64,000 nt of DNA from Lentisphaerae bacterium GWF2_57_35 (GTDB taxonomy: Bacteria; Verrucomicrobiota; Kiritimatiellia; CAIQIC01; GWF2-57-35). Under the pieces are notes generated by a model. That model saw nothing but the letters and a program-made list of their open reading frames with translations. It ran no database searches and was not told where the DNA came from. Each line of letters starts with the position of its first letter. The stretch's first letter is position 1. The stretch spans positions 75,636 to 139,635 of the forward strand of contig MHBK01000051.1 in the NCBI GenBank assembly GCA_001804865.1, written 5' to 3'. Of the stretch, positions 28,582 to 64,000 are shown one piece after another. The position numbers and the translations under genes were made by a program.

Positions 28582-29212
28582 GATGCTCTATCTCCTTCTT
28601 ATTTCTTAAAATATCCAACCATATGGTCATTAGTTTATCTTCCAATTCCGCGAGCGTTCCGTCGTTCCATACGGCGTAATCCGCCCGCTGCATTTTCACT
28701 TCCACGGGCATCTGCGCGGCCAGCCTTTGTTCGGCTGCTTCCGGCAAAAGACCCCGTGTCTCCAATCGTTTCATTACCACGTCCCTCGATGCGCCGATGG
28801 AAATCACCGCATCCCAACCCTTCTCCACGCCCGCCTCGAACAGCAAGGGGACGATGGCCACCGCACGAAGCTGGAGACGCTTCGCCTTATCCTTCCACTC
28901 GTGCATTTGCGTCAAAACCGCGGGATGCACGATCGCATTCAAGGCTTTAAGTTCGGTGGGTTGGCCAAACACCCGTCGGCCTAATTCTTCCCGATTCAGC
29001 GATCCATCCGCTTTGACCACTTCCCGGCCAAAACGCCCGACGATCGCCTTATATACTTCCGTTCCCGGCGCCATGATTTTATGGGCTGCCTGGTCGGCAT
29101 CCCAAATCACGGCCCCTTTTCGTTCCAAGATGCGCCCGGCTTCGCTCTTCCCGCAGGCCAGCCCGCCGGTCAGGGCCAGACAAAACCCAATGGATAAATC
29201 AGTCGGCTTCAT
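28574..29212 (-). CDS. coaE: Dephospho-CoA kinase
   Basis: P-loop '[17 protein letters not shown]'. '[13 protein letters not shown]'. 'AIVHPAV'. Typical ~200-aa length. Confidence 0.9.
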
Positions 29213-35668: not shown

Positions 35669-35753
35669 TTTGGAAACTCCTCCTTGGGCCTATTTTCGTA
35701 ACTTATGTTTATTGCAAACTAAATTCCTGGACTTGGATTCGAACGATCCTCCG

Positions 35754-36800: not shown

Positions 36801-37819
36801 GGCGTCGCCTCCTCTTGTTGAGCGCCCGCAAAACGGTACACATCGACCTCCAGTTTCACCACGACCGGTTCGCGCCCGGCCACAATCCGCTGCTCGCGGC
36901 TGACAGCCGTATCTTTAGCCCCCACGGCGGACGGAACGGACCCGGCCGGAGCCACCACGCTCGACGAGGGCGCGGGCGCCTTCGCCGGAAGAATGTCGGC
37001 GCCTTTCTTGACGGACTTGCCGGCATTGTCCAATTCCAGATTGGAGACCACAACGAACAATGGGGATCGAGCCATCGCGTTCAGCACCTCGCGGATCGAG
37101 GAATCGTTGGAGGCGAAGGTCAGCGTATAATGCTCGCGCGAATACAACCCCGCCTGCTCGCCGGCGTCGGGCTGATGAGGGAAGATCGCCGTTGCAGAGG
37201 CGTTCTGCTCGGACTGATTCGCCATGCCGCGCCGCCGCCCGCCGCCCTGCGGCTCCGTTGGCTGCGCCATGCTGCCGCCCTGCTCGAAAACCTCCCGCGT
37301 AACCGATACAATCTCGCCGATCTTGGATTTGTACAGCAAGTTACAAAGTTCCTCGACCTCCTTAACCTGCACCACCAGCCGGGGAATATCCGAGGAGGAG
37401 GGCAACTCGCCCTTGGCATAGCGGTCGAATCCAAACGCGAACCGGGCCGGCAACTTGACATTGGCGGTCATGGAGGAATCCAGCAACTTGCGAATGGTAC
37501 GCTCCAACAGCAGCGGAAATTGCGCCGATTCCATGTTCTCCGGCTCGAGCTGCCCGACCTGGAGTTGACCGTATAAATTGGTGAAAAAGCCCTGAAGAAG
37601 ATCCGCCTGCTTCCGCATCTGCTCGACGTTCGCCTCCGAAGGATACGGATCGCGCTGATGTAAAAAGGTCAGGCGATTCATCGAACTCTGCAGCTCGCTG
37701 TTCACCTTCTTGAACGCCCCGTGAAAGCGAAACAGCATGACCAACGCCGCCAGAATCAGGACTAGCGATATCGTCCCGCCGACTATTAAAACCATGTGTT
37801 TTTTTAAATTCATTGTCAT
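36797..37819 (-). CDS. PilO-like type IV pilus assembly protein
   Basis: A single N-terminal transmembrane segment 'MVLIVGGTISLVLILAALVMLF' is followed by a coiled-coil and a periplasmic domain. The gene sits between the pilM/N-like and PilP-position genes with a 4-nt overlap. Confidence 0.55.
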   Translation of the reverse strand: MTMNLKKHMVLIVGGTISLVLILAALVMLFRFHGAFKKVNSELQSSMNRLTFLHQRDPYPSEANVEQMRKQADLLQGFFTNLYGQLQVGQLEPENMESAQFPLLLERTIRKLLDSSMTANVKLPARFAFGFDRYAKGELPSSSDIPRLVVQVKEVEELCNLLYKSKIGEIVSVTREVFEQGGSMAQPTEPQGGGRRRGMANQSEQNASATAIFPHQPDAGEQAGLYSREHYTLTFASNDSSIREVLNAMARSPLFVVVSNLELDNAGKSVKKGADILPAKAPAPSSSVVAPAGSVPSAVGAKDTAVSREQRIVAGREPVVVKLEVDVYRFAGAQQEEATP

Positions 37820-37938
37820 TACTTGGAGTATGGGAATCGCAGATTAACGACTATTTTAAAAGCTCTTCCTCGCCATACTGCTCACGTAGAACCCCATCTC
37901 AAATTTTCGATCTAAAATTCTCCGCCTCCCCCTGCTCC

Positions 37939-39636
37939 CTACACCTCCAGAGGCTTCTTCAGCACCCCGATAATCCGAAACTCGAGGATCACATCGTCCG
38001 GCCCCGGAGCCGGCTGCCACCGGATTTCCGTCTGATCGTCGAACAGCGACATCGTACGCAACTTGTCCCGGAACTTGCTGATCGCCTCCGATGAAACCTT
38101 GTCGATATAGCCCGCGCCATTCAATTCAATAAACCGTATCCCCTGCGGAGCGGCAGCCTCTCCGGACGGATCTTGCGGCGGCGTCGCGCCGGTCGGCGCA
38201 TCGGAGCCGGAAGAAACGGTCGGACGTATCGTTTGCAGCCACATGCCGTCCGGCAGGCATTGATTGATCTCGTCGAGCACCTTCAACCATTGGGAACGCC
38301 GGTCCACCAAATGGAGCGTCGTGCGAATCTTTTCGTCAATCTCGTTGCGCTGCTGCTCCGTGCTTCTCAACTGGCTCTCGACCGATTCCAGCGCCGCCGC
38401 CACGACCTTCACCCGGTCCAGCCGCGCCTGCGCCAGGCTCGTCATCTTGAGGAAATAGCCGCACCAGATTGTCAGCACCAAAAACAGCACCACCGCGGAG
38501 GCGACAAACAAGGGCTGTTTCTTGCGAAACGCCTTTTGTTGTACGACCTTGGGAGGCATCAAATTGATTTCGATCGGACAGGACAACTCGCGCCGCAGGG
38601 CCAGGCCGACCACCTGCCCCAACGTATGGGCGTGCCGTCCAATCTGCTCCGCCGGAATCCGCTCGCTCACCGCGACGTTCAAAAACGGATTCATATAATC
38701 CACATCCACTTTCAGCTTTTCCTTCAGGAAGGTATCCGTGTAAGGAATCACCGAAGTGCCGCCCGTCAGCAGCACCAACTGCGGTTGCTGCCCCGATTGC
38801 TGGCTGCGGTAGAAATTGATCGAACGGTTGATTTCGGCGTGCAGCCGGGTCATTACGCTGCGGACGCTCTTGGACACCTTGTCCACCGTTTCGCTCTTGG
38901 GTCCTTCGTAGGCGCCGCCGAAGGCTACGAAGGCGTGCGCCATCTTCATCTGCTCGGCATCGGCAAACGACAGGTTGAACTCCTGCATGATCTGCTGGGT
39001 AATCGCGTTGCCCGCCACCGGCACGCTGCGGCTGAACACCCGGCCCGCTTCGATGAAAATCAGGTCCGTCGAACGCGCCCCGATGTCGATCAGCAGCGTA
39101 CAGGCCGGCAAGTCGGTGTAGTTGTAGCGAACGGCATTGTACAGCGCCATCGGCGCCACATCGATCAGGTCCGGGCGCATCCCGGCCGACTCCACCGTGT
39201 CCGACAACTGCTCGATGATGTCCGCCTTGATGGCCGCCAGCATCACGTCCACTTCGCCGCCCGCCCCGCCGATCAATTGGTAATCCCAAACCACTTCGTC
39301 GATCGGGAACGGCACGTTCTGCTGTGCCTCGTAGAGGATGATCTGGTAAACCTTGTCCTTGTCCACCGGCGGCAACTTTACGAAACGCGAGAAAACCGAC
39401 TGCCCTGACACCGAGATCAGCACCGTTCCCGGCCGAATACCCGAATCCTGCAACAGCTCTCGGATGGTCGTCACCAAGTAGGTCGAGCGATCCCCTTCGC
39501 TCTGAGGATCCATGCCCAACGAACCGACCGCATAATTGACCAGTTCAAGTCCGCCCGACTTCAGTGCCACGAACTCCGCCAGCTTGATGCCGCTTGCACC
39601 GATGTCCAGGGCCAGAATACTTTCGGATTTCAGCAT
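37939..39636 (-). CDS. pilM: PilM (actin-like ATPase fold) fused to a PilN-like C-terminal module
   Basis: PilM N-terminus 'ILALDIGASGIKLAEF...VLISVSGQSVFSRFVKLPP...LIDIGARSTDLIFIE...LVLLTGGTSVIPY'. Then a transmembrane segment 'LFVASAVVLFLVLTIW', a coiled-coil and a periplasmic domain typical of PilN. Confidence 0.8.
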   Translation of the reverse strand: MLKSESILALDIGASGIKLAEFVALKSGGLELVNYAVGSLGMDPQSEGDRSTYLVTTIRELLQDSGIRPGTVLISVSGQSVFSRFVKLPPVDKDKVYQIILYEAQQNVPFPIDEVVWDYQLIGGAGGEVDVMLAAIKADIIEQLSDTVESAGMRPDLIDVAPMALYNAVRYNYTDLPACTLLIDIGARSTDLIFIEAGRVFSRSVPVAGNAITQQIMQEFNLSFADAEQMKMAHAFVAFGGAYEGPKSETVDKVSKSVRSVMTRLHAEINRSINFYRSQQSGQQPQLVLLTGGTSVIPYTDTFLKEKLKVDVDYMNPFLNVAVSERIPAEQIGRHAHTLGQVVGLALRRELSCPIEINLMPPKVVQQKAFRKKQPLFVASAVVLFLVLTIWCGYFLKMTSLAQARLDRVKVVAAALESVESQLRSTEQQRNEIDEKIRTTLHLVDRRSQWLKVLDEINQCLPDGMWLQTIRPTVSSGSDAPTGATPPQDPSGEAAAPQGIRFIELNGAGYIDKVSSEAISKFRDKLRTMSLFDDQTEIRWQPAPGPDDVILEFRIIGVLKKPLEV

Positions 39637-50463: not shown

Positions 50464-52854
50464 TCATTCATCCAAATATCTGAACTGCCGGACAAACATT
50501 TCGTGAATGTCATCACCATTGGGGAATGGATCCCGCCAAACCAGAGCCACGGCCCGACGTTCTGCGGAAATAACATCAAGGTCAGCGTCCCAATCACCAA
50601 TCGGCTCATTATCCTTGATAGCCTGAGCCACTACGACTACGGTGAAAAGGTTCTCCGTAGGATTGAAGGCCCGATACGTATTGCGTACCAAGGCATCGCG
50701 CTGATTGTTGTTTAAACTCTGAGCGCCGCCAGACATGGCCCCACCGACTTGCATGACGGAGACCCCCGCCCAACTGGCGGGACTGTCGAAACTGTCCAGC
50801 CCTTCGCGCCCCTCGTGCGACCCCGTTACGATTTGATCAATTAAAAAGTCGAGCGGCTCTGAGGCGCCATTCAAGACGTTCGTGTCGTCTGGCACAGGAG
50901 CTTCTGCGATACTCGCATTCTGAAAAATACTCCTTAATACGTTCGAATTGAGCGTACCCGGATGCACCAGGCCATTAGTCCAGAAACCGTTAACAATTCC
51001 TTGAGGCGCCAAGACTTTTGCCATAATGTTAGTCTGTTGATTGCCACAAAACCTATTAAGAAGCTCGATGCCTGCCGGCTCAAAAAGATTGATGGTCTTC
51101 CAAGGCTGGCCGATGCTGATAAAGCCAAAATCCGCTGGCGATTCTAAGTTTGCATCACGAACGTACAAAGAATATCCTTCGTCATCTCCGCCCGAAGCAG
51201 CAACTGAAGGATTTATCAAACCTGGCGACACAGGCGACGCAGCTGTCCACGCTGTGACTTCGTAGTTCATGCGAGGATCATTAACCTCCAGTCCCTTCTC
51301 AGCCAGAGAAACCGTGCCGTTCGCAGCAGCAGCAGTAAAGGAAAAAGGCAAAAAGACCAGCGCAGAAACGGAATCAGCTGTATCAGCGTTTCGTATAAGC
51401 TCTAACAAATTAACACGAACAAGCAATCGAAGACTATCATTTGCCGAGATCGGCAAGCCATTAGCTGTATATGTATAATCCCATTTCTGAGGTTTTCCAT
51501 CACTATAATCTTCGGTAAACATAATATCCTCAGATGGTGATATTAGCCCAACATTGGCTATTGTTCCTTGGGTCATATTCTGAAACGTAAAGGAAATCTC
51601 ACCTGACCCTAGAGGTCCAATTCCCAATCGGGGATTATTGGGCTTGAATCGATAGCCACCAAGTGCTGGCTTTCCAGGAAAGGGATACCAAGTTTCGATT
51701 GTCAGATTGACAACTAAGTTTGCCGTAAGCCCATCACTAGCCGTCGTCAAAGTGCCTTTGTAAATGATTTCATTAATCATCGGCACGGCCTCGGTGGAGA
51801 AAGAGTTTACATTAATGGGTATTCGATTTGTATCTCGAAAATCCATCAGACTGTCGGCCATCATATCCGCCACCGAAGCATCCATACCCCAGAAGTCAGG
51901 ACTGCTAAATATTTTCTTCGCCTGCGCTGCCGTCCATTTGTTAACATCGGGATTCACATCTTCCCATCCAAAAGCCTGCCAGCTTCCCGATCCCCAATCA
52001 AACCACCCCCGATAATAATTAAGGCTATAGGGCATCAAGTTGGAGAGCTTATTTGTATCCAGGGCAATCAAATCGGGGTTTTGCCAATTAGGACCATTCC
52101 CTTCCCCATCGTTGAAAGTAATTAACTCAGGGAAAGAGTCAAACCCATGATACCAGTTCCGATTTTGTATGAAGTTCACCAGAGCCACGGCTTCCGGCAA
52201 AGAACTCATGTCTACATCGCGAACGTTTTGCCTCTCGCTCGAAGGATTAAAGAGACCGCCCGCGTTGGGCATGGAGATCAGATTAGCATCCATGGCCCCG
52301 GAGCAATCCAGCACGACATAACCATACCGCCCGAGGATTCGTCTAGGGGATTCAGGATCTACCACATAAACCCACTGAGCGGGAAGGTTAAAGGGAGGAA
52401 GGCCATTTGTCAGAAGAACCCTGGCATTCAGTTGGGGCATCGTGGGGGGGAAATACTTCTTGGGAATCCAGTTAACCACTTCCCCTTCCAGCAACTTGAG
52501 GTTTCCCAAAGGGACCGCCTGGTTGGGAACCGAACCCACATGCCGCGACATAAGAACCGACTCGGTCAGGGAAGGAATAATCAAATTGCTATCCCATAAT
52601 GCATGGTCGTAATCGTTCATGGCGGCGTTCAACGCAGAACGGGCCAATTGACGACAACGGCTGAGTTCCAGAGCGGAATCCGCCACCAGTCGTTCCGTGC
52701 GCGTCAGCGTCAGCAAAGCCACAGCCATCATAGTTAAAATGCTGAGAAACCCCAATACCACCACTAAGGCAATGCCGTCGCGCCTGTTGATGTTGCTCCA
52801 CAACTGAATCGTCATAAGAATTCCTAGTGCCAATAATGAGCCGGATGGCTCCAT
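50464..52854 (-). CDS. gspK: GspK-like minor pseudopilin (unusually large, 796 aa)
   Basis: GspK-type N-terminus 'RRDGIALVVVLGFLSILTMMAVALLTL', which lacks the conserved Glu5. It is the last gene after the G-H-I-J-like series. The start may instead be the internal Met at 52815. Confidence 0.45.
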   Translation of the reverse strand: MEPSGSLLALGILMTIQLWSNINRRDGIALVVVLGFLSILTMMAVALLTLTRTERLVADSALELSRCRQLARSALNAAMNDYDHALWDSNLIIPSLTESVLMSRHVGSVPNQAVPLGNLKLLEGEVVNWIPKKYFPPTMPQLNARVLLTNGLPPFNLPAQWVYVVDPESPRRILGRYGYVVLDCSGAMDANLISMPNAGGLFNPSSERQNVRDVDMSSLPEAVALVNFIQNRNWYHGFDSFPELITFNDGEGNGPNWQNPDLIALDTNKLSNLMPYSLNYYRGWFDWGSGSWQAFGWEDVNPDVNKWTAAQAKKIFSSPDFWGMDASVADMMADSLMDFRDTNRIPINVNSFSTEAVPMINEIIYKGTLTTASDGLTANLVVNLTIETWYPFPGKPALGGYRFKPNNPRLGIGPLGSGEISFTFQNMTQGTIANVGLISPSEDIMFTEDYSDGKPQKWDYTYTANGLPISANDSLRLLVRVNLLELIRNADTADSVSALVFLPFSFTAAAANGTVSLAEKGLEVNDPRMNYEVTAWTAASPVSPGLINPSVAASGGDDEGYSLYVRDANLESPADFGFISIGQPWKTINLFEPAGIELLNRFCGNQQTNIMAKVLAPQGIVNGFWTNGLVHPGTLNSNVLRSIFQNASIAEAPVPDDTNVLNGASEPLDFLIDQIVTGSHEGREGLDSFDSPASWAGVSVMQVGGAMSGGAQSLNNNQRDALVRNTYRAFNPTENLFTVVVVAQAIKDNEPIGDWDADLDVISAERRAVALVWRDPFPNGDDIHEMFVRQFRYLDE

Positions 52855-53729
52855 TGCCCCGGCGTCATGATCGGGAAAATACGAGTCATTAGTACATTTG
52901 AATCGCGGATCATCAGTGAACGCCCTTTTCGCCAGACATCATCCTGGGAGCTCCCAACGTATAATAGATTCGCGCCGCCCTGACTGGCCGCTTCCGTGGA
53001 CGTAACTTGCAGATAAATGTCAATAGCTGCAGGATGCATGTCCGCATCATAAAGACCGGGGTATGTCTTGCTGCTTGAATAGGAACTGATCCCCCCTGAT
53101 TCCTCCTGCAACAAGACACCTTTCTGCGTATGCAGATACACGTCGAACCGGACAATATTATCGATCAGGACTTCGGGATTCCCACTCGCCACAGACAACG
53201 TCAGCCACCAATCTTTGTACAGGAGAGGATTATTCGCCGACGGCTGCAAGGGATCTTTAGAATTCTTATCCATCACATCGAAATTCCATGAAGAGCGCCG
53301 AAGTCGAAAGCGCTTGGATGCCACTAAATTATTCGTTGCTTGATATTCATTAACATCATAACACACAAGCTGATAAGCCCGGCCATCATCCTGATCACCG
53401 CCCGTCGTAACAAACCAGACCTCGTCGAACCCAAACCCGTTAGGATTTGCTCCCCACGACCCGGTTGTCTTGTCCACCGAATCCGCCTCGTGATAGAAAG
53501 CCAGACGTTCATTAATCACAGCACATTCAAGTTCGTGGCGGATGAGATCCAAAGCCGATTCAGCAGCGCCATTTCGCATGACCGTGGTCGTCCCTTTTTT
53601 AAACGCGTTCGTGGCTTCCGTAAAAACACGGGTTAGGGCCAGCATCAAAATGACCAGCACAACCATGGAGGCCAACACCTCAATCAGGGTAAAAGCATCC
53701 GTTTTTCGTGTCGTCCATGAACTTCGCAT
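52824..53729 (-). CDS. Prepilin-type minor pseudopilin in the GspJ position
   Basis: 'MRSSWTTRKTDAFTLIEVLASMVVLVILMLALT' is a class III signal / N-methylation motif. 301 aa. Called GspJ-like from its position before the GspK-like gene. Confidence 0.5.
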   Translation of the reverse strand: MRSSWTTRKTDAFTLIEVLASMVVLVILMLALTRVFTEATNAFKKGTTTVMRNGAAESALDLIRHELECAVINERLAFYHEADSVDKTTGSWGANPNGFGFDEVWFVTTGGDQDDGRAYQLVCYDVNEYQATNNLVASKRFRLRRSSWNFDVMDKNSKDPLQPSANNPLLYKDWWLTLSVASGNPEVLIDNIVRFDVYLHTQKGVLLQEESGGISSYSSSKTYPGLYDADMHPAAIDIYLQVTSTEAASQGGANLLYVGSSQDDVWRKGRSLMIRDSNVLMTRIFPIMTPGQWSHPAHYWH

Positions 53730-53733
53730 AAAA

Positions 53734-54288
53734 CTACCTCAGTGGGAGATATTCCCTGTAAAAGACCTTGCCGGGCGTGCCAGGGGTCTGTCCAGATGGG
53801 TACTGTCCGGGCCAAACCTGCAGACGGGCATATTTAAGTCCAGGATAAGCGTTCACCTCCGCGATACTAAACTTGTAAGTGAAATATGCGGCTTTGATAT
53901 TCCCATCTAGCCAAACGTCACCGGCATAGAAATTAGGGATCCAGTAATACGGATTCTCTACCTCGATCACACCGCTGGGAACGATAATCGGTTGCAGGTT
54001 TGTGTTCATGGAATGTGATTTCATCAACTGAAAGGAGCCGCTTGTCTCAAAGTCATCCCACAGTTCATTCGTATTGGCCGCTTCAAAATCAAGGCTGCTG
54101 AAAACATAATCGGCAAAGGCGGCAACTTCCGTGTCGTCCACCGCTGCCCGGGTGGCATTCAAGCCTTCGGGGAAAAGGCCGAAAACAGCCAACAAGCCGA
54201 TGGCGACAACCAGGAGAGCCAGACTTACTTCGACCAATGAGTATCCGGCATCCTTTCGAATAGAGTCTATTGTGGCATGCATATTCAA
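53734..54288 (-). CDS. Prepilin-type minor pseudopilin in the GspI position
   Basis: 'KDAGYSLVEVSLALLVVAIGLLAVFGLFPEG'. 184 aa. Confidence 0.5.
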   Translation of the reverse strand: MNMHATIDSIRKDAGYSLVEVSLALLVVAIGLLAVFGLFPEGLNATRAAVDDTEVAAFADYVFSSLDFEAANTNELWDDFETSGSFQLMKSHSMNTNLQPIIVPSGVIEVENPYYWIPNFYAGDVWLDGNIKAAYFTYKFSIAEVNAYPGLKYARLQVWPGQYPSGQTPGTPGKVFYREYLPLR

Positions 54289-54971
54289 AAGTTCATATTT
54301 CCTATGTCTATTTCCACCTGCCCGGTCTTCCCCCTGACACGTATCCGGTTCGTGATGCCCGGCACGGACAACCGTTCCTCCAAGTTGTTGCCAGCCGCAT
54401 TGGGCTCATAAAACTTGGAAGTCGTCAGAAAAACACTGACGGGCACATCCCCCCAAGATGCGCCTCCATACTTATAACCATGCCCATTGGGTTTGAAAAG
54501 GATGGCTGCCATGTCGCGGCGTGCATCGCTTTCTGCCGGGAAAGGCAAGGGGAAGCTTGTCCCAAAGACCTGACCAGTCAATGAACTGTTAGTCAAAATA
54601 TAAACCCCGGAGGGAAGATACTTCCATGAAGACAGATACACAAAATTAGTCACTGTTTTGGTTTCGTTGGTTAGAGCCATGACCACATAACCCTGAAGGC
54701 ATTTATTGAGATTTTCAGAGCTATAAGTTCCATCCGAAATGGAGGGAAAGGCAACAAAGACCCATTGACGTTGAGTGACTGCATGCTGCCGAGCCAGACG
54801 AAGAGTTGTGGCCAATTCGGTGGAAGCTCCATTGATATCCTTTTTCCCGAACGTTTCGAACACCGGCATGGCGACGACGAACAGCAGGCTGATGATGGCA
54901 ATCACCACCAGCAGCTCGATGAGCGTAAAGGAACTTCTGTCTTTGCGTGTTAGATCCATATTCATTACCAA
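54285..54971 (-). CDS. Prepilin-type minor pseudopilin in the GspH position
   Basis: 'RSSFTLIELLVVIAIISLLFVVAMPVF...ELATTLRLARQHAV'. 228 aa. Confidence 0.5.
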   Translation of the reverse strand: MVMNMDLTRKDRSSFTLIELLVVIAIISLLFVVAMPVFETFGKKDINGASTELATTLRLARQHAVTQRQWVFVAFPSISDGTYSSENLNKCLQGYVVMALTNETKTVTNFVYLSSWKYLPSGVYILTNSSLTGQVFGTSFPLPFPAESDARRDMAAILFKPNGHGYKYGGASWGDVPVSVFLTTSKFYEPNAAGNNLEERLSVPGITNRIRVRGKTGQVEIDIGNMNF

Positions 54972-55480
54972 CTCGTCAAATTATCGTTGGTGGTCGCATC
55001 CTGCCCATCCGGCCCGGAGGACCAAGCAATGACGGGAGCCAGCACCGCGTCGATTCCCCCGCCGGGAGGGACAATTCGTCCGTCGCGGGTCGCATCGAAT
55101 CTCACCTTGTAGACATTGCCCCACGGATCGACAAAATCGTTGGCGGAGTTTAAAGCGGATTCGTCCGGCTCAAAAAATACGATTCTTTTAGGATTCCGGG
55201 GGTCGGAGGTCTTGAAATAAGCCCGCAACATGAGCACAACCTCGCCGTTCATAGCGTAATCCAATTCGTTTTGAACAGGCCAAATCCCGTATTCATTGAA
55301 GTACTTCATCCACACCGAGGCCAGCAGCTTGGCGTCGGCCTGAGCCTGAGCTTGCTCCCCTTTTTTGATCATGGTGTTGATGGCCGGCATGAGAAGCGCA
55401 GCCAAGATGGCCAAGATGCCAATGACAACCAGCAATTCGATCAAGGTGAATCCATTTTTCGTTTCAGGTTTTTTTTTCAT
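54965..55480 (-). CDS. gspG: GspG-like major pseudopilin, paralog 4
   Basis: 'NGFTLIELLVVIGILAILAALLMPAINTMIKKGEQAQAQADAKLLASVWMKYFNEYGIWP' matches the T2SS GspG pattern (F-T-L-I-E-[LIVM], 'K...A..D...L..A...Y..D.G.YP'). Confidence 0.55.
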   Translation of the reverse strand: MKKKPETKNGFTLIELLVVIGILAILAALLMPAINTMIKKGEQAQAQADAKLLASVWMKYFNEYGIWPVQNELDYAMNGEVVLMLRAYFKTSDPRNPKRIVFFEPDESALNSANDFVDPWGNVYKVRFDATRDGRIVPPGGGIDAVLAPVIAWSSGPDGQDATTNDNLTSW

Positions 55481-56124
55481 GGGGGTGTAAAGGTCGTTAA
55501 GGCCCGGCTTATATCATAGCTAGCTTTGTTGTTGCTTCCCGCCGAGTTTCCGCCCGTGGGCGGACCATAGGACACGACGCCTACTTTGTGGCCAATTATT
55601 TCGACTATATTCCAAACCTGCAGGGGCGTCTGAAGTCGAGAAAACAAAATGACCGTGTCGGCGTCGGTATCCATGATAATTTGATAAGGATTGCCCCAAG
55701 GGTCGAGAAAATAGTTGTTGGCCGGGGTATAAGAGTCGCCGTTCATATCCACGCCCACCAACGATTCCTCGGGGATTTGCAGGTAGACCTTACGATTGGG
55801 ATTATTCGTCGTATCGCGGGCGGTCAGAATATTCATCACAATGCTCTGATCGTCCGGAGTGGAATTACCAGGCAACTGCTTCATGCCGTAGTCGGAATCC
55901 TGACTGCCATTTCGGCCCGGGGCGGGCATGAACCCATAGTCCTTGTAATAAGACAAAATGGCGGTCTTTATATTGTTCATCTCCGTCTTGGCGCGGGTGA
56001 TGTCCGCGCGCTTCATGGCGGCATTGATCGCGGGAAACAACAGCGCGGCCAGCACGGCAATAATGCTGATGACCACCAGCAATTCGATTAGCGTAAAACC
56101 CCTTCGATTTGTGTTTAAGCGCAC
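55477..56124 (-). CDS. gspG: GspG-like major pseudopilin, paralog 3
   Basis: 'RGFTLIELLVVISIIAVLAALLFPAINAAMKRADITRAKTEMNNIKTAILSYYKDYGFMPAP'. Confidence 0.55.
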   Translation of the reverse strand: MRLNTNRRGFTLIELLVVISIIAVLAALLFPAINAAMKRADITRAKTEMNNIKTAILSYYKDYGFMPAPGRNGSQDSDYGMKQLPGNSTPDDQSIVMNILTARDTTNNPNRKVYLQIPEESLVGVDMNGDSYTPANNYFLDPWGNPYQIIMDTDADTVILFSRLQTPLQVWNIVEIIGHKVGVVSYGPPTGGNSAGSNNKASYDISRALTTFTPP

Positions 56125-56128
56125 GATT

Positions 56129-56803
56129 TCACCATGATTTAATAAACGATTTCGCCTTGCCCGGTTCGGATCCGAAGCTCATGACGCCAATTTTTAGGCC
56201 AGGGAAGGTCCCGTCGCCACCCGGTGACGCGGCATTAATGGCCGTACGCACTTCCGCATATGGGATCAAATCGAAAGCTCCCCGGTCGATCCCCTCATCC
56301 CGGCTGGTATCCATCACGATGTAATATGGATTTTCCCACGGGTCGAGATAGTAGTTATCCGCTTCGGTATAAGAAGCCGAATCCCCCGTCAAAGAAGCCT
56401 TGCCGACAAGGCTTTCCTTCGAAATATCGAGATAAAGCTGCTGGCCCTTGTTCTGGCTGTGATCCGGATTAAACGTGCTGTGCGGCATGGCCCTCAAGAC
56501 ATACATGAGAGAACACTGCTTGTCAGCCAAATTTTGCCCGCCAAACAGGGCATCTGCGCGGCCGTTTTGATTGTACGTCGGCATTCGATTATGCTTTTGA
56601 TAATAATTGCGGATGGCCGTTTCGATGTCCTTCATCTGCGCCATGGCTTTATTCTTGTCCGCCCGTTGAAACGCCGCGTTCATGGCAGGGAGGATAATCG
56701 CCGCCAGAATGGCAATAATGCTTATAACAACGAGTAGCTCAACCAATGTAAAAGCGTGCTTGCTTGGGATTCTTCTCATCAACATCATCTCCGCTCCCTC
56801 CAA
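56129..56803 (-). CDS. gspG: GspG-like major pseudopilin, paralog 2
   Basis: 'HAFTLVELLVVISIIAILAAIILPAMNAAFQRADKNKAMAQMKDIETAIRNYYQKHNRMP'. Confidence 0.55.
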   Translation of the reverse strand: MEGAEMMLMRRIPSKHAFTLVELLVVISIIAILAAIILPAMNAAFQRADKNKAMAQMKDIETAIRNYYQKHNRMPTYNQNGRADALFGGQNLADKQCSLMYVLRAMPHSTFNPDHSQNKGQQLYLDISKESLVGKASLTGDSASYTEADNYYLDPWENPYYIVMDTSRDEGIDRGAFDLIPYAEVRTAINAASPGGDGTFPGLKIGVMSFGSEPGKAKSFIKSW

Positions 56804-56867
56804 GACACGAACTTACCCTCCTAAAGTTTAAAAGTCCAGCGGCCTTTCCACGAGCCGTCCGCTAAAG

Positions 56868-57368
56868 CTATTGAGCTGTCCAGTTATTCAAATTTGTCTG
56901 CCCATCAGGGCCCAAAGACCACAAATCGTAGCCAAATTTGGAGTCGTTGTGATCGGCATAAGGACTAGCAGAACGATGAAGATATCGATACGTCGCCCCC
57001 CAAGGATCGATGGCTCCATAGTTGATGTTGGGATCGGTCCAGCCCTTTAACACCAAGAAGGGTTTCTTACCTAAGGCTTGGGGCTGGCACCACAATTGAG
57101 CGACCCAGTTGGTGGTATTTGCAGGAAGAAAATTGATTGGATATCGTCCATACTCGACACGATAATCTTCCAAGGCATTCTTAATCTTCTCCATATCGGA
57201 CAGAGCCTTGCCCTCATCTGCCTTCTTGGTAGCAAGCCCCGCCACCCCCAAGATCATCGAAGCCAAAACCGCGATGATGGCAACCACCACGAGCACTTCA
57301 ATGAGGGTAAAAGCCTGGGAAAACACCGAATGGTCTGAGGTCGGAGCAGAGATATGTATACGCTTCAT
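56868..57368 (-). CDS. gspG: GspG-like major pseudopilin, paralog 1. The start is taken at the internal Met after a GGAG RBS; the ORF is open up to 57422.
   Basis: 'QAFTLIEVLVVVAIIAVLASMILGVAGLATKKADEGKALSDMEKIKNALEDYRVEYGRYPIN'. Confidence 0.55.
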   Translation of the reverse strand: MKRIHISAPTSDHSVFSQAFTLIEVLVVVAIIAVLASMILGVAGLATKKADEGKALSDMEKIKNALEDYRVEYGRYPINFLPANTTNWVAQLWCQPQALGKKPFLVLKGWTDPNINYGAIDPWGATYRYLHRSASPYADHNDSKFGYDLWSLGPDGQTNLNNWTAQ

Positions 57369-57383
57369 GTCGCGGTCTCCAAT

Positions 57384-57433
57384 TTTTCCAATGATTGGAA
57401 AAAATCCTACACGATTTTCCAATGATTGGAAAA
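57384..57433. promoter_or_regulatory. Two perfect palindromes 'TTTT(T)CCAATGATTGGAAAA(A)' with centres ~31 bp apart, between the giant gene stop and the first gspG-like start
   Basis: Palindrome 1 is at ~57384-57404 and palindrome 2 at ~57414-57433. Both are confirmed by mirror-image translations on both strands ('FFPIIGK' / 'FPMIGK', 'FSNDWK'). Confidence 0.5.
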
Positions 57434-57453
57434 CGTTTAAAGGGTTTTTATAG

Positions 57454-60400
57454 CTATTGGTTAACCGAATAACTAAAACAATGGTCCAAATGGGCGCTTG
57501 GATATCGCTGAGTCACGCTGGCGCCATCTTTGGAATACTCCGACTGAAGGAAGTACTCAACCTTGGTCTGAGGTGGCTGCGCGGGAATGGGCGTAGCGGT
57601 GTAGTACACGTCAAACGCATTCGTCATACTTAGCAATGTAAAGACACCGTTCGTCCCTGCGCGATACCAGGTTCTTAGCGCAAGATTCGTTAGGTCGGCA
57701 CGAGGGAGGATTTTGGCATGAATATACACCGTGTCATTGGAATATGCAGACTGAGGAACTTGTCCCACATTCAGAACGTTTATGCGACCTGGGGCCGTTT
57801 CTGCCAGAATCGAGATGGCTGAAGCGGTCCCCAATAACTGTCCAGCGTAGTTGCCTAGCCATGCTCCATCGGTTCGCTGAGCTGAAAGAAGATTGGTCGC
57901 GCAAGCGTATCGCCAGTTCTGAGCGCCAATCATCTCAATGGGTGGATCGAACATGTCACAGGCTGCGCCGAAAGCGTGCATCCCATAAAGGTCAGAAGCT
58001 TCTGGAATCGAGTTGGCATTCAAGTAATTCAGGGCCAGCTGGACTTCCGTGTTAGTAAAAGTGCGGTTCAGGAAAGCCAATTGAGCTAAGCCATAGGAAG
58101 TGCGCGCAGAAGTGCCGTAAGACGGCCCATCATAGCCAAAGTATCCGTTGTCGTTTTGCGAATAGGCAATCCAAGCCGCCAATTCGGCTCTCAACCCGTT
58201 AGGGATGGAAATCCCATCCCAGGTTTGTGCATGATACAATCCGACCGCTGACCACCATGACGCAGAGTTGTCCGAAGACTCATGATTCGCGGAATACCGC
58301 CATCCGCCACGCCCGTAGCCATCGTCCGTTTGCGCCCAACCGCAATAATCGGCCATATCTTGCATGATATCGCGATATGATCTTCCCGCAATATTGCCGG
58401 GTGCATTCTCGGGAGCAACATTGGTCGGCCATGCAGACTCGATAAATGCAGTCATTATCGAACCAAGTTGATACATCTCGTTATTGCTATTAGCCAGCCC
58501 TATACCTAAACCATTCGAATTTGCATCAGGATTGTAATTACATTTGTCCGTGGAAATGGGTTTGGCTTGAAGGCAGTCGATTAACAAATACCGCAAGCCT
58601 CCTGAAATCGTCTCCTCGTATATGTCGTCTTCACAAGATGGCCGATGGCCAAGGGACGCAAAGGCGGTGATCGCCAGGCTATTGGCGCAGGCAATGTAAG
58701 AAGTTCCATAGTTATCGTGCTGCCAATAATATCCGTGAGCATGAAAAAACGCATTTGTATATAACCAGATCAACCCATTTTCCGCGGCGAGTAATGCCAG
58801 CGCATCAAAGTTGTTTGTTTCACGACACGCTAGTTGAAAATCGAGCGTTACAGGAACTCCCCGGCTATCGCTTAAATAAGCGTTTACATCGTATATAGAC
58901 GATGTCGAATAAACATGTTCGGTCCCAATATAACGAGATCCTGTTGTTTGCGTTACCGTAATTGTCGCACTGTGGTGGCCATCGCCTAAATCGAACCAAC
59001 AAGACAACGGCCATTGATTGGTTTGAATTTCAGTTGCTGCCATCCAAATACGAGTCGTCACGCCAACAACCGAAACTCCCCACGTATTACTTTGGTCATA
59101 ACTCGGCATATGCATGAAACGATTGAATGCGCATTCATCTGCACCGATATCTACCACGGCTTCTAATATCCGAGCATCGCCATCCAAGTCCGTTAGCATT
59201 TCCATTCCAGACGTATTGCTCCCCGTATTTAGACAGGGGGATGCATGTGATAAGTGCCAGCCGTCCGGTGCGAAAAGAGGATTGGAATTCAAATTGCCAG
59301 GTCCTGGAGGTATTAAAGAATCTTGCAGACAGGAATAGGCAAAGGACCAGTTTGTCCCCCATACATTGTTGGAGACGAAACCCCACACAATGCAATTTGT
59401 CATAGTCACGTATGACCCAGGCACTCCCGTATTATCGAGAAAAAGTGCATGCCCACAATTATCAGCGCTGTTATTGACCAAGGTGCAGTTCATGAATCGA
59501 ATCGGATATCCAGGGTGTCCACTCGAATAGAAAGCGCCGCCTTTGTGGGCCACGTTGCTATGAAATAAACTCGTATTTACATCTACCTGCGAGCTTGCCG
59601 CGATGGCGCCTCCGGTGGAGGCTGTATTTTCAATAAAGCGGCAGTGGGATAGCGAAAACACGCCCAAACCCATCAAAGCTCCGCCTTGATTAACTGCGTG
59701 GTTGTCCTCGAATCGACATGCCGCAGCCCTGAATAATCCGTTACTTTGCACAACGACTGCACCGCCATTCAACGCTGTATTTTGATTCAAACGACTGTTT
59801 TCCAGATTAAGATTTGCGGACACTTTCAATGCTCCGCCTATCGCGGACGAATTATTGGTGAACCCGCAGTCCGCGAGGTACGATTCACATTCAGCGTCAA
59901 TAGCGCCTCCAACACTCGTCGCATTGTTGTCCTCAAACGAACAATTTGCAGCCATAAGAATTCCATTACTGCGCGCCGAAATAGCGCCACCATCAATCGC
60001 GCTATTACCCGAAAACAAGCAATTGGATAAGTAAAGATCGGAGCACCCCGCCAGCGCTCCGCCAATGGCCGCCAGATTACTGGAAAAGCAACATTGTACA
60101 AAGTCAGATTCGCCATCCGAACTGATCGCTCCACCTTTATCGAATGCATTATTGTTAGCGAACAAAGAACCCCAAATAGAGGCCATTCCGTCTCTATGAA
60201 TAACAACCGCACCACCGACAAGCCCGGTATTGCACAGAAAAATACTATTGGTTAGATCCAGATAACTGCCAACAAATACAGCGCCGCCTGTGGCTGCGGA
60301 ATTACCATTGAAGCTGCACTGCGCCAGTCGCGCATCTCCTCCCAAATACAAAGCACCGCCCATTCCTCGAGCTTGATTCCTTGTGAACAAATTATCTTCA

Positions 60401-63400
60401 GCAAATAGCGAATAGGAATCTGCTGCGGTATATAAGCCTCCCCCCAGACGCGCCAGACAACCTGTTATAATGCAATTTGCTATTCGCACATCTTCTTCAC
60501 ACCAAGCGCCGCCACCGTCTTGAGAGAGGGTTCCTCCGCTATTATCAGTGTGACCATTATAAAGAGTGAACCCATCAACAGTGCATTTTGCGGCTGCATA
60601 TAAACAACGAGTGGATAATTCGGGGCCACTGCCAGATATTGTCGTAACAGATGGACCATTGACACTTTGCAGGTGAACCGAATCCTTCAGAAGAGCAACC
60701 CGACACCCAATTCCGTCCCCAACAATCCGCATTCCTGAATCATAAACCCCATTGGAAACCAATACAAAGGAACCGACCCATGCCGCATCAATGGCATCCT
60801 GAATATTGGTTGCAGCGGTTGCCCATGTGATGAATGGGACAGAGGGGCTGGAATTATATTTATCGACATAATAGACACCTAATTCGTCCGCGCCGATATC
60901 AACGATTTGATCTTGTATTCTTGGAGCACCATCTAAATCGGCTTCTACCGCGAATCTCGATAGGTTGGTCCCCGCATTTCGACACGGAGAGTCCGGCATT
61001 AAATGCCAGCCGTCGCGTTGAAAATTCGGATCGGTATTGATATTACCTACACCTGGAGCGGGCGATGGGCCTTGAATACAAGAGTACGCCGCGCCCCACG
61101 TTCCGCCTTCAATAACGCGATTATTTGCGGCTCGCAATATACAATTAGTCAAACAAGCCGTGCCCCCTAAATAGATCAGCGGGGCTAAAGATCCGGCGTC
61201 GTTGTCAACCAAGGTGCAATTGACCAAATTCAGGTCACCCATCGAGCGAATTGCACTGCCCCTACATCCACCGCCATTATCCATCAACAGACTGTTCTCA
61301 ACGACTGTGCGCGAGGTCGAATATATTCCTTCCGCACCGGGAGAACAACGGTTGCTGGCAATAACACTGCGGTCGATATATATAGGCAAGGTAACGTATA
61401 GCGCTCCCCCTTCTCTTGCGTAATTGTCCTCAAAAACACATCTCGACATTAGGCAAGTAATCCCCGACAAATAAATAGCACCACCTGCACTGCCACCAAT
61501 GTTTCCGGTGAACAAGCAATTTTCCAATACAAATGATCCCGATGTGCCGCACACCGCACCACCATAGCCCGTTGTAATGGAATTACTGATAAATGCGCAT
61601 GACTGAACAGTCAGCATGGCTCCATCAGCATTGATCGCTCCGCCAAAATAGAATATATGTCCATTTCGCATGGTCAAATGCTTAATGACGGCACTAGTTG
61701 TCCCATTTTGAATCAGAAACGCCCGGCCAGAAGATTCACAGTCGATGACGGTATTGTCTCGTTGCCCTTGCAGGCCGGTAACGGCCAGGTTTTTTCCGTT
61801 GAAATCCACGTCACGATTTAAAGATCCCGTATAGGCGCCAGGCATAATAATAATATGGTGGCCATTGGACGCCTGCCCAAGCGCGTAAGAAATGGTAGCG
61901 TAAGGGTTGGTATACGAGCCGCGGCCTATGGCATCCACGCCGTTGGTGGCGACGTAGTGACCGCCGACGGGCTGAGAGTCAAGCGAGTTGGGATTGGTTT
62001 GGGCGTTATACTCTTCCAGGTTCGACCAGCCGTCCTGGTCGGGGTCCAGGTCCGCATCGGCGGGGTTGTTGGGATTCAGGCTATGCCAGCGTTCCCAGTC
62101 GTCGCTCATGCCGTCGCCGTCGGCGTCCACAAAACCGGCCGTTGGATCGGCGCCGGCGTAATATTCGTAGAGATTGATGAGGTGGTCGCCGTCTTCGTCG
62201 TTTGTCTCCACACGCGACAAATTAGAAAACCATTTCATTTCCCACCAATCCCCCATTTCATCGTCATCGGTGTCCGGATTGGTCAGGACGATATCGGCGT
62301 TGTCGATTGGGCCGGCAATGGAAAGGGCGGTGTTCGTATAGTAGCCGCGGGCTTCGTACACTCCGCAGGTTCTGTTGCCGTCGGAGTCGCGCCAGGTCCA
62401 AATCCAGCAGGGTCCTTCCGGAAAAGCGGTCAGCCGATAAGGGCCGGGTTGCGGCAAGACTTGTGCAAAGTTTGTGCTGCAACTGTTCGAGGCGGCGACG
62501 GCCACAACATAAATCAAGCCGGTCTGGCCTCCACTATAAGGCGCATAACTTATCGTGCCGCCGATGCTGGGCGGGTCCTGGAGCGCAAAATCGATGGCGG
62601 TCCTGCGGTTGCTGACGGCAAAGGCCGTTTGGCTGTACCGCCCCACCCGTTCGGGCCAGGCCATGTTGAAATTTGTGTCGGAATCGACGAAGGCGCGAAT
62701 CCAGTAATTCGAGGCGGGCATTCCAACGATGGAATAATTGACGGGGAAGGTCACAACCGCCATTTCGCCGGAAAGGCCGCTGCTTTGTATCCAGGGAATG
62801 ACGCAACGATACGTCGTATCCCAACTATTCGATGCCGTGACCGCGACGATCCAAATATCCCCATTGACCGAACCCGTGTAGCTCAGTTGTCCCCAAATCG
62901 AGGGGACATCCTGCAGGGCCATGTTGACGCCGCCGATATTGGACGTCACGTAAGTTGAGGCCGCACTGTAAAGAGCCCAAGGCTCCCAGCCGTCCAGGTT
63001 GTGATTGTTGTTCGCATCGCGAAACGCTTTGAACCACCAAGCCCGAGGGATGGCGACGCGATTGTTGCTATAGGCGTCCGGCGTGGGCATCGAGACGGAG
63101 CCCCCCAGCGACCAGCTCTCGGAGGCGGCCACCGCCAGCATATAGACCGAACCGGTTTCAGCGCCGCTATACGAAATTGCACCCGACACGAGAGCCGGGT
63201 GAGACGATGCATTGGTCGGATCGGAATGGTACAGAAATCGTTCGCGCATATCGGCATACCCATCTCCATCCGAATCCAGATCGGCATTGCCCGCCGCATA
63301 GATGCGTGGCGTTACCGGGGGTATGGCCACTTCGGCATCGGTCCATTCGATCCAGTTGGTTGAAGAGGAGACCGGGGTCGTGGCCGCAAGATCCCACCAG

Positions 63401-64000
63401 AATTCAAGCAGGTCATCCGTCCGGAAAACATCGAGCCGATTCGTGAAGCAGTTGACCGGGTAGGTTGCGCCACTATAAGGATACACAATGGTCAGACGGA
63501 CAAGATTGGTCATTCTTTCGATAGCCGTGATGCAGATGTTCGTGACCGGCGGGCCGGCGTAGCGCATAAGCACGGCGCCGCCTTTCGGTGTGGAGGAAGA
63601 AAGGGCAGCATTCTGCGCAATAAGGGCGGTTGTGTACAGGTACGGCTCGGCATATTCGCACGGAACCAACGTAAGTTCCACCTGCACCCGCGAACTGTCA
63701 TATAGCCGGGACATATAGTCCACATAACCGGGGCTGTATTTTCCCGAGAACAGATCCTGAAAGATCGTTTTGAGATACCATTGCGGCTCACGGGTTGCCG
63801 ATTGAAGTGCAAATATCTCTTTGCCTTTTTCGTTAAAGAACCGAGTGGTCCGCGACTTTTGATCTTCGACCATAGTCAGTTTGTAGGCGGGAACACTGTT
63901 CTCGTAGCGTAAGACGAGATTTTTGAATTCGTGCGGAAATTTATGCCAATTAAACGGCAAGACTTGGCCGCTGGGTTGGCGCAGGATGAAATCCTCGGCA
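57454..64000 (-). CDS. Giant secreted protein (>2,168 aa, probably 5'-partial). Its parts are described in the evidence field.
   Basis: The ORF is open to the window end. The first listed codon is TTG and the visible N-terminus has no signal peptide, so the gene likely continues upstream. The N-terminus carries three tandem copies of a ~110-aa unknown module ('ISYSGAETGSVYMLAVAASESWS', 'LSYTGSVNGDIWIVAVTASNSWD', 'ISYAPYSGGQTGLIYVVAVAASNSCS'). Two dockerin/TSP3-like double calcium-loop modules follow: 'DTDDDEMGDWWE...DEDGDHLINLYEY' and 'DADGDGMSDDWE...DPDQDGWSNLEEY'. There are ~18 Pmp-type repeats pairing 'GGAI/GGAV/GGAL' with 'CxFxxN', e.g. 'GGAINADG...CAFISNS', 'GGAIYLSG...CVFEDN', 'GGAISARSNG...CSFEDN'. 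The C-terminus is a W/Y/G-rich region 'DDGYGRGGWRYSANHESSDNSASWWSAVGLY...QNDNGYFGYDGPSYGTSARTSYGLAQLAFL'. Confidence 0.8.
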   Translation of the reverse strand, partial: AEDFILRQPSGQVLPFNWHKFPHEFKNLVLRYENSVPAYKLTMVEDQKSRTTRFFNEKGKEIFALQSATREPQWYLKTIFQDLFSGKYSPGYVDYMSRLYDSSRVQVELTLVPCEYAEPYLYTTALIAQNAALSSSTPKGGAVLMRYAGPPVTNICITAIERMTNLVRLTIVYPYSGATYPVNCFTNRLDVFRTDDLLEFWWDLAATTPVSSSTNWIEWTDAEVAIPPVTPRIYAAGNADLDSDGDGYADMRERFLYHSDPTNASSHPALVSGAISYSGAETGSVYMLAVAASESWSLGGSVSMPTPDAYSNNRVAIPRAWWFKAFRDANNNHNLDGWEPWALYSAASTYVTSNIGGVNMALQDVPSIWGQLSYTGSVNGDIWIVAVTASNSWDTTYRCVIPWIQSSGLSGEMAVVTFPVNYSIVGMPASNYWIRAFVDSDTNFNMAWPERVGRYSQTAFAVSNRRTAIDFALQDPPSIGGTISYAPYSGGQTGLIYVVAVAASNSCSTNFAQVLPQPGPYRLTAFPEGPCWIWTWRDSDGNRTCGVYEARGYYTNTALSIAGPIDNADIVLTNPDTDDDEMGDWWEMKWFSNLSRVETNDEDGDHLINLYEYYAGADPTAGFVDADGDGMSDDWERWHSLNPNNPADADLDPDQDGWSNLEEYNAQTNPNSLDSQPVGGHYVATNGVDAIGRGSYTNPYATISYALGQASNGHHIIIMPGAYTGSLNRDVDFNGKNLAVTGLQGQRDNTVIDCESSGRAFLIQNGTTSAVIKHLTMRNGHIFYFGGAINADGAMLTVQSCAFISNSITTGYGGAVCGTSGSFVLENCLFTGNIGGSAGGAIYLSGITCLMSRCVFEDNYAREGGALYVTLPIYIDRSVIASNRCSPGAEGIYSTSRTVVENSLLMDNGGGCRGSAIRSMGDLNLVNCTLVDNDAGSLAPLIYLGGTACLTNCILRAANNRVIEGGTWGAAYSCIQGPSPAPGVGNINTDPNFQRDGWHLMPDSPCRNAGTNLSRFAVEADLDGAPRIQDQIVDIGADELGVYYVDKYNSSPSVPFITWATAATNIQDAIDAAWVGSFVLVSNGVYDSGMRIVGDGIGCRVALLKDSVHLQSVNGPSVTTISGSGPELSTRCLYAAAKCTVDGFTLYNGHTDNSGGTLSQDGGGAWCEEDVRIANCIITGCLARLGGGLYTAADSYSLFAEDNLFTRNQARGMGGALYLGGDARLAQCSFNGNSAATGGAVFVGSYLDLTNSIFLCNTGLVGGAVVIHRDGMASIWGSLFANNNAFDKGGAISSDGESDFVQCCFSSNLAAIGGALAGCSDLYLSNCLFSGNSAIDGGAISARSNGILMAANCSFEDNNATSVGGAIDAECESYLADCGFTNNSSAIGGALKVSANLNLENSRLNQNTALNGGAVVVQSNGLFRAAACRFEDNHAVNQGGALMGLGVFSLSHCRFIENTASTGGAIAASSQVDVNTSLFHSNVAHKGGAFYSSGHPGYPIRFMNCTLVNNSADNCGHALFLDNTGVPGSYVTMTNCIVWGFVSNNVWGTNWSFAYSCLQDSLIPPGPGNLNSNPLFAPDGWHLSHASPCLNTGSNTSGMEMLTDLDGDARILEAVVDIGADECAFNRFMHMPSYDQSNTWGVSVVGVTTRIWMAATEIQTNQWPLSCWFDLGDGHHSATITVTQTTGSRYIGTEHVYSTSSIYDVNAYLSDSRGVPVTLDFQLACRETNNFDALALLAAENGLIWLYTNAFFHAHGYYWQHDNYGTSYIACANSLAITAFASLGHRPSCEDDIYEETISGGLRYLLIDCLQAKPISTDKCNYNPDANSNGLGIGLANSNNEMYQLGSIMTAFIESAWPTNVAPENAPGNIAGRSYRDIMQDMADYCGWAQTDDGYGRGGWRYSANHESSDNSASWWSAVGLYHAQTWDGISIPNGLRAELAAWIAYSQNDNGYFGYDGPSYGTSARTSYGLAQLAFLNRTFTNTEVQLALNYLNANSIPEASDLYGMHAFGAACDMFDPPIEMIGAQNWRYACATNLLSAQRTDGAWLGNYAGQLLGTASAISILAETAPGRINVLNVGQVPQSAYSNDTVYIHAKILPRADLTNLALRTWYRAGTNGVFTLLSMTNAFDVYYTATPIPAQPPQTKVEYFLQSEYSKDGASVTQRYPSAHLDHCFSYSVNQ

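Follow-up and report, generated by a model that had tools for sequence, protein, structure and literature searches.

A Helically Phased Palindrome Pair before a Pseudopilin Operon Belongs to a Phylum-Wide Palindrome Family of the Kiritimatiellota

Introduction

The two palindromes that lie between a giant gene and a pseudopilin operon in the stretch of 64,000 nucleotides analyzed here (the window) are members of a palindrome family which recurs across the bacterial phylum Kiritimatiellota. Copies of the family are almost always spaced by whole turns of the DNA helix, they are maintained inside genes as well as between them, and the genes they precede show no functional specificity. The model discussed below, which we give about an even chance of being right, is that the pair are family sites for a conserved dimeric DNA-binding protein that would bind cooperatively and affect pseudopilin transcription locally.

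The family appears to be undescribed. Full-text literature searches, including one with CCAATGATTGG, returned no description of the element, and the sole CCAAT-type palindrome found in them is a eukaryotic BEN-domain site which is irrelevant to it. The family belongs to the genome-wide iterated palindromic repeats or phased binding-site arrays, and within these to no named family.

The Palindrome Pair and Its Surroundings

The giant gene and the pseudopilin genes on either side of the palindrome junction are all on the minus strand. In the direction of transcription the features are:

57454-64000, minus strand: giant beta-helix/PMP-repeat gene, 3' part; stop codon TAG at 57456-57454; 2256-2320 aa in full contigs
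57415-57433, no strand: distal palindrome TTTTCCAATGATTGGAAAA, built as TTTTCCAAT-G-ATTGGAAAA, with 9-nt arms and central G57424
57404-57414, no strand: non-conserved spacer between the palindromes, aatcctacacg on the plus strand, which sets the 31-bp, three-turn distance
57383-57403, no strand: proximal palindrome TTTTTCCAATGATTGGAAAAA, built as TTTTTCCAAT-G-ATTGGAAAAA, with 10-nt arms and central G57393
57377-57380, minus strand: SD-like GGAG, 8 nt before the ATG and directly after the proximal palindrome
56868-57368, minus strand: first pseudopilin gene, 166 aa, T2SSG and N_methyl domains; ATG at 57368-57366
52824-56803, minus strand: six further N_methyl pseudopilin genes of the operon, making seven N_methyl/T2SSG pseudopilins in all
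50464-52854, minus strand: last gene of the operon, coding for a 796-aa protein with no Pfam match

Both palindromes described in the earlier note are present, inside the 85-nt gap from the giant gene stop to the first pseudopilin ATG, and they fill most of it. The distal palindrome is the copy nearest the giant gene stop and is an exact match to the family 19-mer; the proximal one lies 25 nt 5' of the first pseudopilin ATG and is nearest the SD. An identical 19-mer is common to both, and the start-to-start and center-to-center distances are 31 bp, the value which the note had put as approximate. Its location of the pair at 15-65 nt upstream of the first gspG-like start codon agrees with the measured positions. 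The note also called the palindromes perfect; this is true of the arms, but the single central base cannot complement itself. The pair is not due to chance: the 15-mer TTCCAATGATTGGAA, with at most 2 mismatches, has 4 matches in the 64-kb window (2 sites on both strands) against 0.22 expected, and none of 100 shuffles reached 4 matches. That the motif is absent elsewhere in the window was borne out for looser patterns too, as the relaxed core TTCCAA-N3-TTGGAA had no further copy in the window or in the 3.4 kb beyond; the only near-misses carry 1-2 mismatches. The density in the source DNA is one pair per ~67 kb sampled.

The protein coded for by the first pseudopilin gene is also encoded, unchanged, on contigs deposited for the same organism at NCBI (GCA_003489865.1) and ENA. 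The gap (57369-57453) has no terminator-like site, and no sigma-70-like promoter site turned up in a scan requiring at least 9 of 12 hexamer matches, an A at position 2 of the -10 hexamer and a T at position 6. A search of 56800-57900 against Rfam (E up to 10) returned sub-threshold microRNA and snoRNA noise only.

Some further features of the window deserve mention. The G+C content falls from ~0.58 over positions 1-40000 to ~0.48-0.53 over 40000-62000. This low-G+C block, possibly an island acquired horizontally or distinct in composition, contains the pseudopilin operon as well as the giant genes and a number of proteins without a Pfam match. Upstream of it, at 32693-39636 on the minus strand, are genes for a TPR-containing secretin of 991 aa and for a PilM-like protein with an ATPase fold, so that the window holds more T2SS/T4P-like machinery than the pseudopilin operon alone. 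A 674-aa protein at 29199-31223 (minus strand) matches nearly the whole profile of Dpy19 (PF10034; E = 8e-12), a family better known from eukaryotic C-mannosyltransferases. At 1079-2428 (plus strand) an ATP-cone domain is fused to a uridine-kinase/PRK domain; ATP-cones are otherwise typical of NrdR and the ribonucleotide reductases.

Distribution in the Kiritimatiellota

The 19-mer TTTTCCAATSATTGGAAAA was searched for by an exact-match scan in one genome per species (GTDB representatives), which gives lower bounds. It was found in at least 115 stretches from ~46 assemblies, against ~4 expected from the size of the collection (596 Gb / 4^18). Among the matches listed all but 4-5 are in genomes labelled Kiritimatiellota or Verrucomicrobiota, MAGs or isolates, and the labels include Kiritimatiellae, Kiritimatiellales, Pontiellaceae, Pontiella, Tichowtungia and generic Verrucomicrobiota MAGs. 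The exceptions are Methylophilaceae, Flavobacteriales, Capnocytophaga and one "Bacteroidales" rumen contig which carries an array; these matches outside the phylum look like chance or mis-binning. In the NCBI taxonomy Pontiella and Tichowtungia are placed in different classes of the phylum Kiritimatiellota. The window comes from a host in the same phylum, its Rho protein, 100% identical to that of Lentisphaerae bacterium GWF2_57_35, having as named relatives at 80-90% identity mostly MAGs whose names begin with Kiritimatiell.

In viral contigs a 17-mer was found in 32 stretches, 31 of them with a single copy. These matches were judged, not calculated, to be near chance level and show no sign of a phage origin. 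The one viral-collection contig with a 31-bp palindrome pair (L133:3459-3506; IMG/VR UViG_3300035698_006241) could be a prophage of Kiritimatiellota, or else a host fragment that was misclassified.

Anatomy and Spacing of the Family

The word is 15-19 bp long and has the consensus T(3-4)CCAA-N3-TTGGA(3-4), most often in the form TTTCCAAT-S-ATTGGAAA. Interleaved variants, e.g., TTCCAATGGTTGGAA and TTCCAACGATTGGAA, mark TTCCAA-N3-TTGGAA as the conserved unit and the T/A tracts as lying outside it. The family profile has A in 77% of the copies at +1, in 89% at +8 and in 77% at +9, and both copies in the window fit the 19-mer exactly. The central G/C is not oriented preferentially with regard to the downstream gene (54 vs 45). 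Statistics were collected over 806 kb in 112 loci (referred to by L numbers), each of which was ascertained on one perfect copy; read with that in mind, the exact core occurs 398 times where 0.05 are expected, a more than 8000-fold over-representation, and the core with one mismatch 79 times against 1.7 expected.

The copies in the 112 loci stand alone in 90 cases and in pairs, the commonest array, in 53; the other arrays have 3-7 copies. The distances between neighboring copies fall at 20-22 bp (66 cases), 29-33 bp (190), 40-43 bp (8) and 62-63 bp (3), and none is found at 23-28 or 34-39 bp. The spacing is thus almost always 2, 3, 4, or 6 helical turns, with a vector strength of 0.86 at a period of 10.3-10.4 bp. 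The modal distance, which accounts for 113 of the 278 neighbor pairs, is 31 bp, the same as in the window.

Neighboring spacers are near-identical in L013, L024, L072 and L089, which shows tandem duplication to be at least part of how arrays grow. This counts against a reading by cooperative binding, since tandem duplication alone would keep a period within one array. When arrays from different genomes are compared the spacer sequences are unrelated and the periods are the same, with 21-22 and 30-32 bp recurring in ~46 genomes. A CRISPR array was considered and rejected; the repeat is 15-19 bp and the spacers 3-16 bp, where at least ~23 bp and at least ~21 bp, respectively, would be needed.

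Two peculiarities of the arrays were seen in passing. Rumen Kiritimatiellae MAGs have in common a composite array with similar linkers (L036, L042, L047, L051, L068, L099, L100, L113), in which an ATGAT copy is followed after 22 bp by an ATGGT copy, after 30 bp by an ATGAT copy and after 31 bp by another ATGAT copy; these composite arrays are reminiscent of BIME mosaics. In L039:572-716, L072:7102-7246, L013, L024 and L089 the first copy of the array has a flipped central base (C, then G G G and so on), and in L039 and L072 this copy is only 20 bp from the next one. In some MAGs a flipped first copy recurs as a mark of array polarity.

Copies Inside Genes

The assemblies are of two kinds. Rumen and other high-G+C MAGs have intergenic arrays of 3-5 copies, and genomes of the Pontiellaceae type have dense singletons. 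In loci of the latter type there is ~1 non-ascertained copy per 3.5 kb, and of 75 copies 37 are wholly contained in called ORFs, which make up 77% of the DNA. Our claim about coding frames is restricted to singletons deep within high-scoring ORFs. There are 26 of these, and they are read in the frames FP[IM]IGK-type (12), FSNDWK-type (8) and FQSLEK-type (6). All three frames are used, hence what recurs is a DNA word and not a peptide.

The gene murJ, which codes for the essential lipid II flippase, gives an example of how such copies are kept. The orthologues at L088:2531-4105 and L067:2985-4910 are 52% identical in amino acids, 59% in nucleotides and 42% at third positions, and the 12 core bases are found at the same two codon positions in both, with a different central triplet and different encoded residues. 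In the pair upstream of aroE in L043 and L070 changes have occurred in the 12-nt spacer and in one central triplet, and the arms are intact. The intragenic copies and the sites at murJ and aroE bear the mark of a word that is maintained as DNA, be it by selection or by a conversion-type drive.

Genes Downstream of the Palindromes

Genes were called with a crude home-made gene caller which over-extends 5' ends and produces spurious ORFs across arrays in genomes of 66-68% G+C; with this caller neither the closeness of arrays to start codons nor an "intragenic" call for a multi-copy array is reliable. The 106 classified clusters are co-directional in 67 cases, divergent in 27 and convergent in 12. 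Copies in essential genes and in these 12 convergent gaps cannot all be regulatory. Arrays end 10-40 nt before the start codon in 52 of 121 cases, a figure to be read with the bias of the start calls to short distances.

The 121 best-supported downstream genes hit 125 Pfam families, none of which is enriched or counts more than three genes; among the genes are cysS, pheS, a sucB-like gene, metF, ribBA, ruvB, trmD, murJ, gyrA, asd, and queA. In this census N_methyl is absent from the recurrent families, and no DNA-binding or transcription-factor family recurs.

The same picture is obtained from the pseudopilin genes themselves. Orthologous multi-pseudopilin operons are without the motif in L121, L155 and L156, and those in L118 and L119 have one degenerate copy each, so the pair is not needed for this type of operon. 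On the other hand, the gspG homologues of L122 and L157, in a T2SS E-F-G context, have a 31-bp pair which ends just before the SD and the ATG, and L122 has a second pair upstream of its T2SS ATPase gene (T2SS-E). The palindrome is accordingly not pseudopilin-specific, though the local layout with a pair before the SD recurs. For genome annotation this is a caution against taking such pairs as gene-specific operators.

The degenerate copies upstream of the orthologous operons, at L119:~7880-7900 and L118:~7950-7970, are single variant palindromes, CTTTCAAT-CC-ATTGAAAAA, in which both arms are changed symmetrically, and CTTCCAATCTTTTTGAAAA. They may be decayed or diverged copies. Y1 (IS200/RAYT-like) transposase genes were noted at L118:15092-15337, L121:15280-15732 and L024:6723-7025; none is flanked by the palindrome, and two of the three lie ~7 kb downstream of pseudopilin operons related to that of the window.

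Comparison with Known Systems

A close likeness to the pair as such is found in the system of NrdR, a tetrameric repressor of ribonucleotide reductase operons. NrdR binds two 16-bp palindromic boxes with a linker of 15-16 bp and a center-to-center distance of 31-32 bp, on one face of the helix (PMC13584703, PMC12051234). The pair in the window resembles these in being twin boxes of similar length, with same-face spacing and adjoining the start of a gene. However, the sequences are unlike, NrdR boxes are confined to nrd operons whereas the Kiritimatiellota word precedes unrelated genes and occurs inside ORFs, and there is no NrdR homologue near the arrays in the sampled loci.

Proteins of the Lrp family bind cooperatively to sites aligned on one helix face at distances of 2 or 3 turns, and they wrap the DNA (PMC2995911). 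The likeness to Lrp/AsnC sites lies in palindromes of ~15 bp and in family spacings of 21-22 and 29-33 bp, which fit the 2 or 3 turns. Lrp sites are degenerate, whereas the Kiritimatiellota word is near-perfect and identical across the phylum, and the sampled loci contain no Lrp-family gene.

Cyanobacterial HIP1 is an over-represented palindrome which is conserved within and between ORFs (PMC5861425). The Kiritimatiellota word is likewise a palindrome over-represented throughout a taxon, in and between ORFs (398 copies vs 0.05 and the two murJ sites, all in the loci of relatives). It differs from HIP1, which is 8 bp and G+C-rich and is not known to form helically phased tandem arrays, in being 15-19 bp long and A+T-flanked, in its ~3-fold enrichment between genes, and in its scarcity in certain lineages, that of the window among them.

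The BIMEs of E. coli are dispersed intergenic palindromes in regularly spaced clusters, and the present element shares both the dispersal and the regular clusters. REPs are extragenic, longer, G+C-rich imperfect hairpins which are species-specific and linked to RAYT; in contrast, the Kiritimatiellota word is not strictly extragenic (37 of 75 copies in ORFs), it is phylum-wide, and the Y1-transposase-like genes in the sampled loci are not flanked by it. With the uptake sequences DUS and USS, the former of which is recognized by a minor type IV pilin, it has in common that a short word is found throughout a taxon, in coding and non-coding DNA, and in some lineages at a density on the kb scale. 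Unlike the present word, DUS and USS are not palindromes and are not known to form phased arrays, and the density in the source DNA is far too low for such a sequence. The element joins HIP1-like maintenance in ORFs, BIME-like clusters and operator-like phased dyads, and these are not found together in one known kind.

A Model for the Pair

The symmetric 6-3-6 site with its A/T flanks, the lack of strand bias, the identity across the phylum and the whole-turn spacing lead us to propose a dimeric, cooperative binder of the helix-turn-helix type. The geometry is that of known cooperative binders such as NrdR and the Lrp family. The model hypothesizes that the copies of the family are high-affinity sites, each with two 6-bp half-sites 9 bp apart center to center and flanked by A/T tracts. 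On sites 2 or 3 turns apart the dimers would touch each other on one face of the DNA, forming a dimer of dimers or some larger complex with the DNA wrapped. At the junction this complex would lie after the giant gene and before the ribosome-binding site of the first pseudopilin. Any transcript that ran in from the giant gene, or began in the gap, would meet the occupied pair, which could modulate, block or insulate pseudopilin transcription.

The earlier note had interpreted the pair as operator sites for a dimeric or tetrameric regulator controlling the pseudopilins. The one-face spacing, found over 112 loci, agrees with the former part of that interpretation, but the distribution over 121 downstream genes, the orthologous operons and the copies in ORFs do not agree with a control of pseudopilin expression as such. 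The note had also allowed that the motif might be a common dispersed repeat of intergenic and coding DNA; across the phylum that is what it is, while the source DNA is sparse, with its one pair per ~67 kb. When the motif-bearing loci (~1 Mb) were searched by tblastn, the queries being Lrp, Fur, NrdR and HU of E. coli and Spo0J of B. subtilis, the matches were to HU only; these loci yielded no homologue of Lrp, Fur, NrdR or ParB.

Alternative Explanations

A different view is that the pair has no function at the junction and that the family is a repeat, selfish or neutral, like REP/BIME or MITE elements, spread by a transposase or by slippage and building up wherever the genome tolerates it. 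Dispersed and mostly intergenic copies beside unrelated genes, arrays of regular period in which near-identical neighboring spacers mean tandem duplication, the composite arrays common to several rumen MAG loci, the great variation in copy density among lineages and the lack of the motif in most orthologous pseudopilin operons are all as such a repeat would have it. Yet we hold it to be unlikely. REP sequences are species- or genus-specific, whereas the same 19-mer is found in two NCBI classes of one phylum; half of the Pontiellaceae-type copies are in ORFs, and the murJ positions are kept despite saturated synonymous sites. Only 3 Y1-transposase-like genes occur in ~1 Mb, none flanked by the motif, the A+T-rich stem with its loop of 1-3 nt makes a weak hairpin (-5 to -6 kcal/mol), and the same periods of 21-22 and 30-32 bp are found in ~46 genomes with unrelated spacers. 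The copies in genes fit another view, in which the word is a tag of self DNA of the DUS/USS or HIP1 kind, serving an uptake, repair, methylation or nucleoid machine and preserved throughout the genome by selection or biased conversion; the position before the operon would then be incidental. The density of ~1 copy per 3.5 kb in loci of the Pontiellaceae type, where half of the copies are in ORFs and all three frames are used, the conserved orthologous positions in murJ and the identity of the word throughout the taxon speak for a tag, as does the example of HIP1, which is over-represented and conserved within and between ORFs (PMC5861425). But a tag does not account for a source DNA with one pair per ~67 kb, and in the rumen lineages nearly all copies are in intergenic arrays. 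Helically phased arrays are, to our knowledge, no property of DUS, USS or HIP1, and taking these points together we regard the tag as somewhat less probable than an already unlikely repeat.

Three models make the pair a local signal of the junction. A distance of 31 bp creates the arrangement TTGGAA-N17-TCCAAT, with exactly the 17-nt spacer of a sigma-70-like -35/-10 promoter, which would give a short leader containing the SD. The pair is the commonest array, a start codon often follows an array at 10-40 nt (52 of 121), and divergent and co-directional contexts predominate, all of which would suit a promoter, though the start-codon calls are biased toward short distances. TCCAAT, however, has a C at position 2, where the near-invariant -11 A belongs, and the scan of the gap was negative; the corresponding hexamer in L122 is TCCAAG, and neither the 22-bp spacings nor the singletons, intragenic copies and convergent contexts fit. 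A promoter is for these reasons quite improbable. Still less probable is an element acting in the RNA, where the two copies in a read-through transcript would pair to a long hairpin that masks the SD or stabilizes the upstream mRNA. The junction does fold with -26.1 kcal/mol (z = -3.3) with the copies paired together and GGAG paired with CUUUAA in the minimum-free-energy structure, and there is no terminator between the two cistrons. Against this, the equivalent region of L122 is not unusually stable (z = +0.5) and leaves the SD unpaired in the centroid structure, the single hairpins are weak, no Rfam family matches, and helical phasing is a property of DNA for which RNA offers no rationale. 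Nor do the AT-rich attenuator hairpins suggested earlier find support, as the gap has no G+C-rich stem, no U tract and no terminator-like site, the A/U-rich stem being followed by A on both strands. The last of the three is a dedicated operator pair for a repressor specific to pseudopilins or T2SS. It has on its side the pair directly upstream of the first pseudopilin gene and those upstream of the gspG homologues in L122 and L157 and the T2SS-E gene in L122. We consider it very improbable, and the distribution of the motif has largely refuted it: the 121 downstream genes are functionally incoherent, most orthologous operons are without the motif, and hundreds of copies are found elsewhere, including inside murJ.

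What the Family May Mean for the Kiritimatiellota

Genome-wide words are known in few bacterial groups, namely HIP1 in the cyanobacteria, DUS and USS in two families of proteobacteria, and REPs in enteric bacteria and pseudomonads. Every one of these words has raised questions on chromosome organization, self-recognition or mobile DNA.

Returning to the model of a cooperative dimeric binder, the features of the family taken together would imply a conserved, probably abundant and undescribed DNA-binding protein in the Kiritimatiellota. It is tempting, as a tentative extension which we think possible but do not favor, to see in TTTCCAAT-S-ATTGGAAA a phylum-wide, selection-maintained signal of an abundant nucleoid-organizing, self-marking or uptake protein. 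If that were true, it would be a word written in all reading frames and amplified into phased intergenic arrays, and the first such system beyond cyanobacterial HIP1. The phased-array architecture would make the mode of binding directly testable, and with a long, perfect word and strict phasing the binder should be easily recovered from cultured Pontiella or Kiritimatiella.
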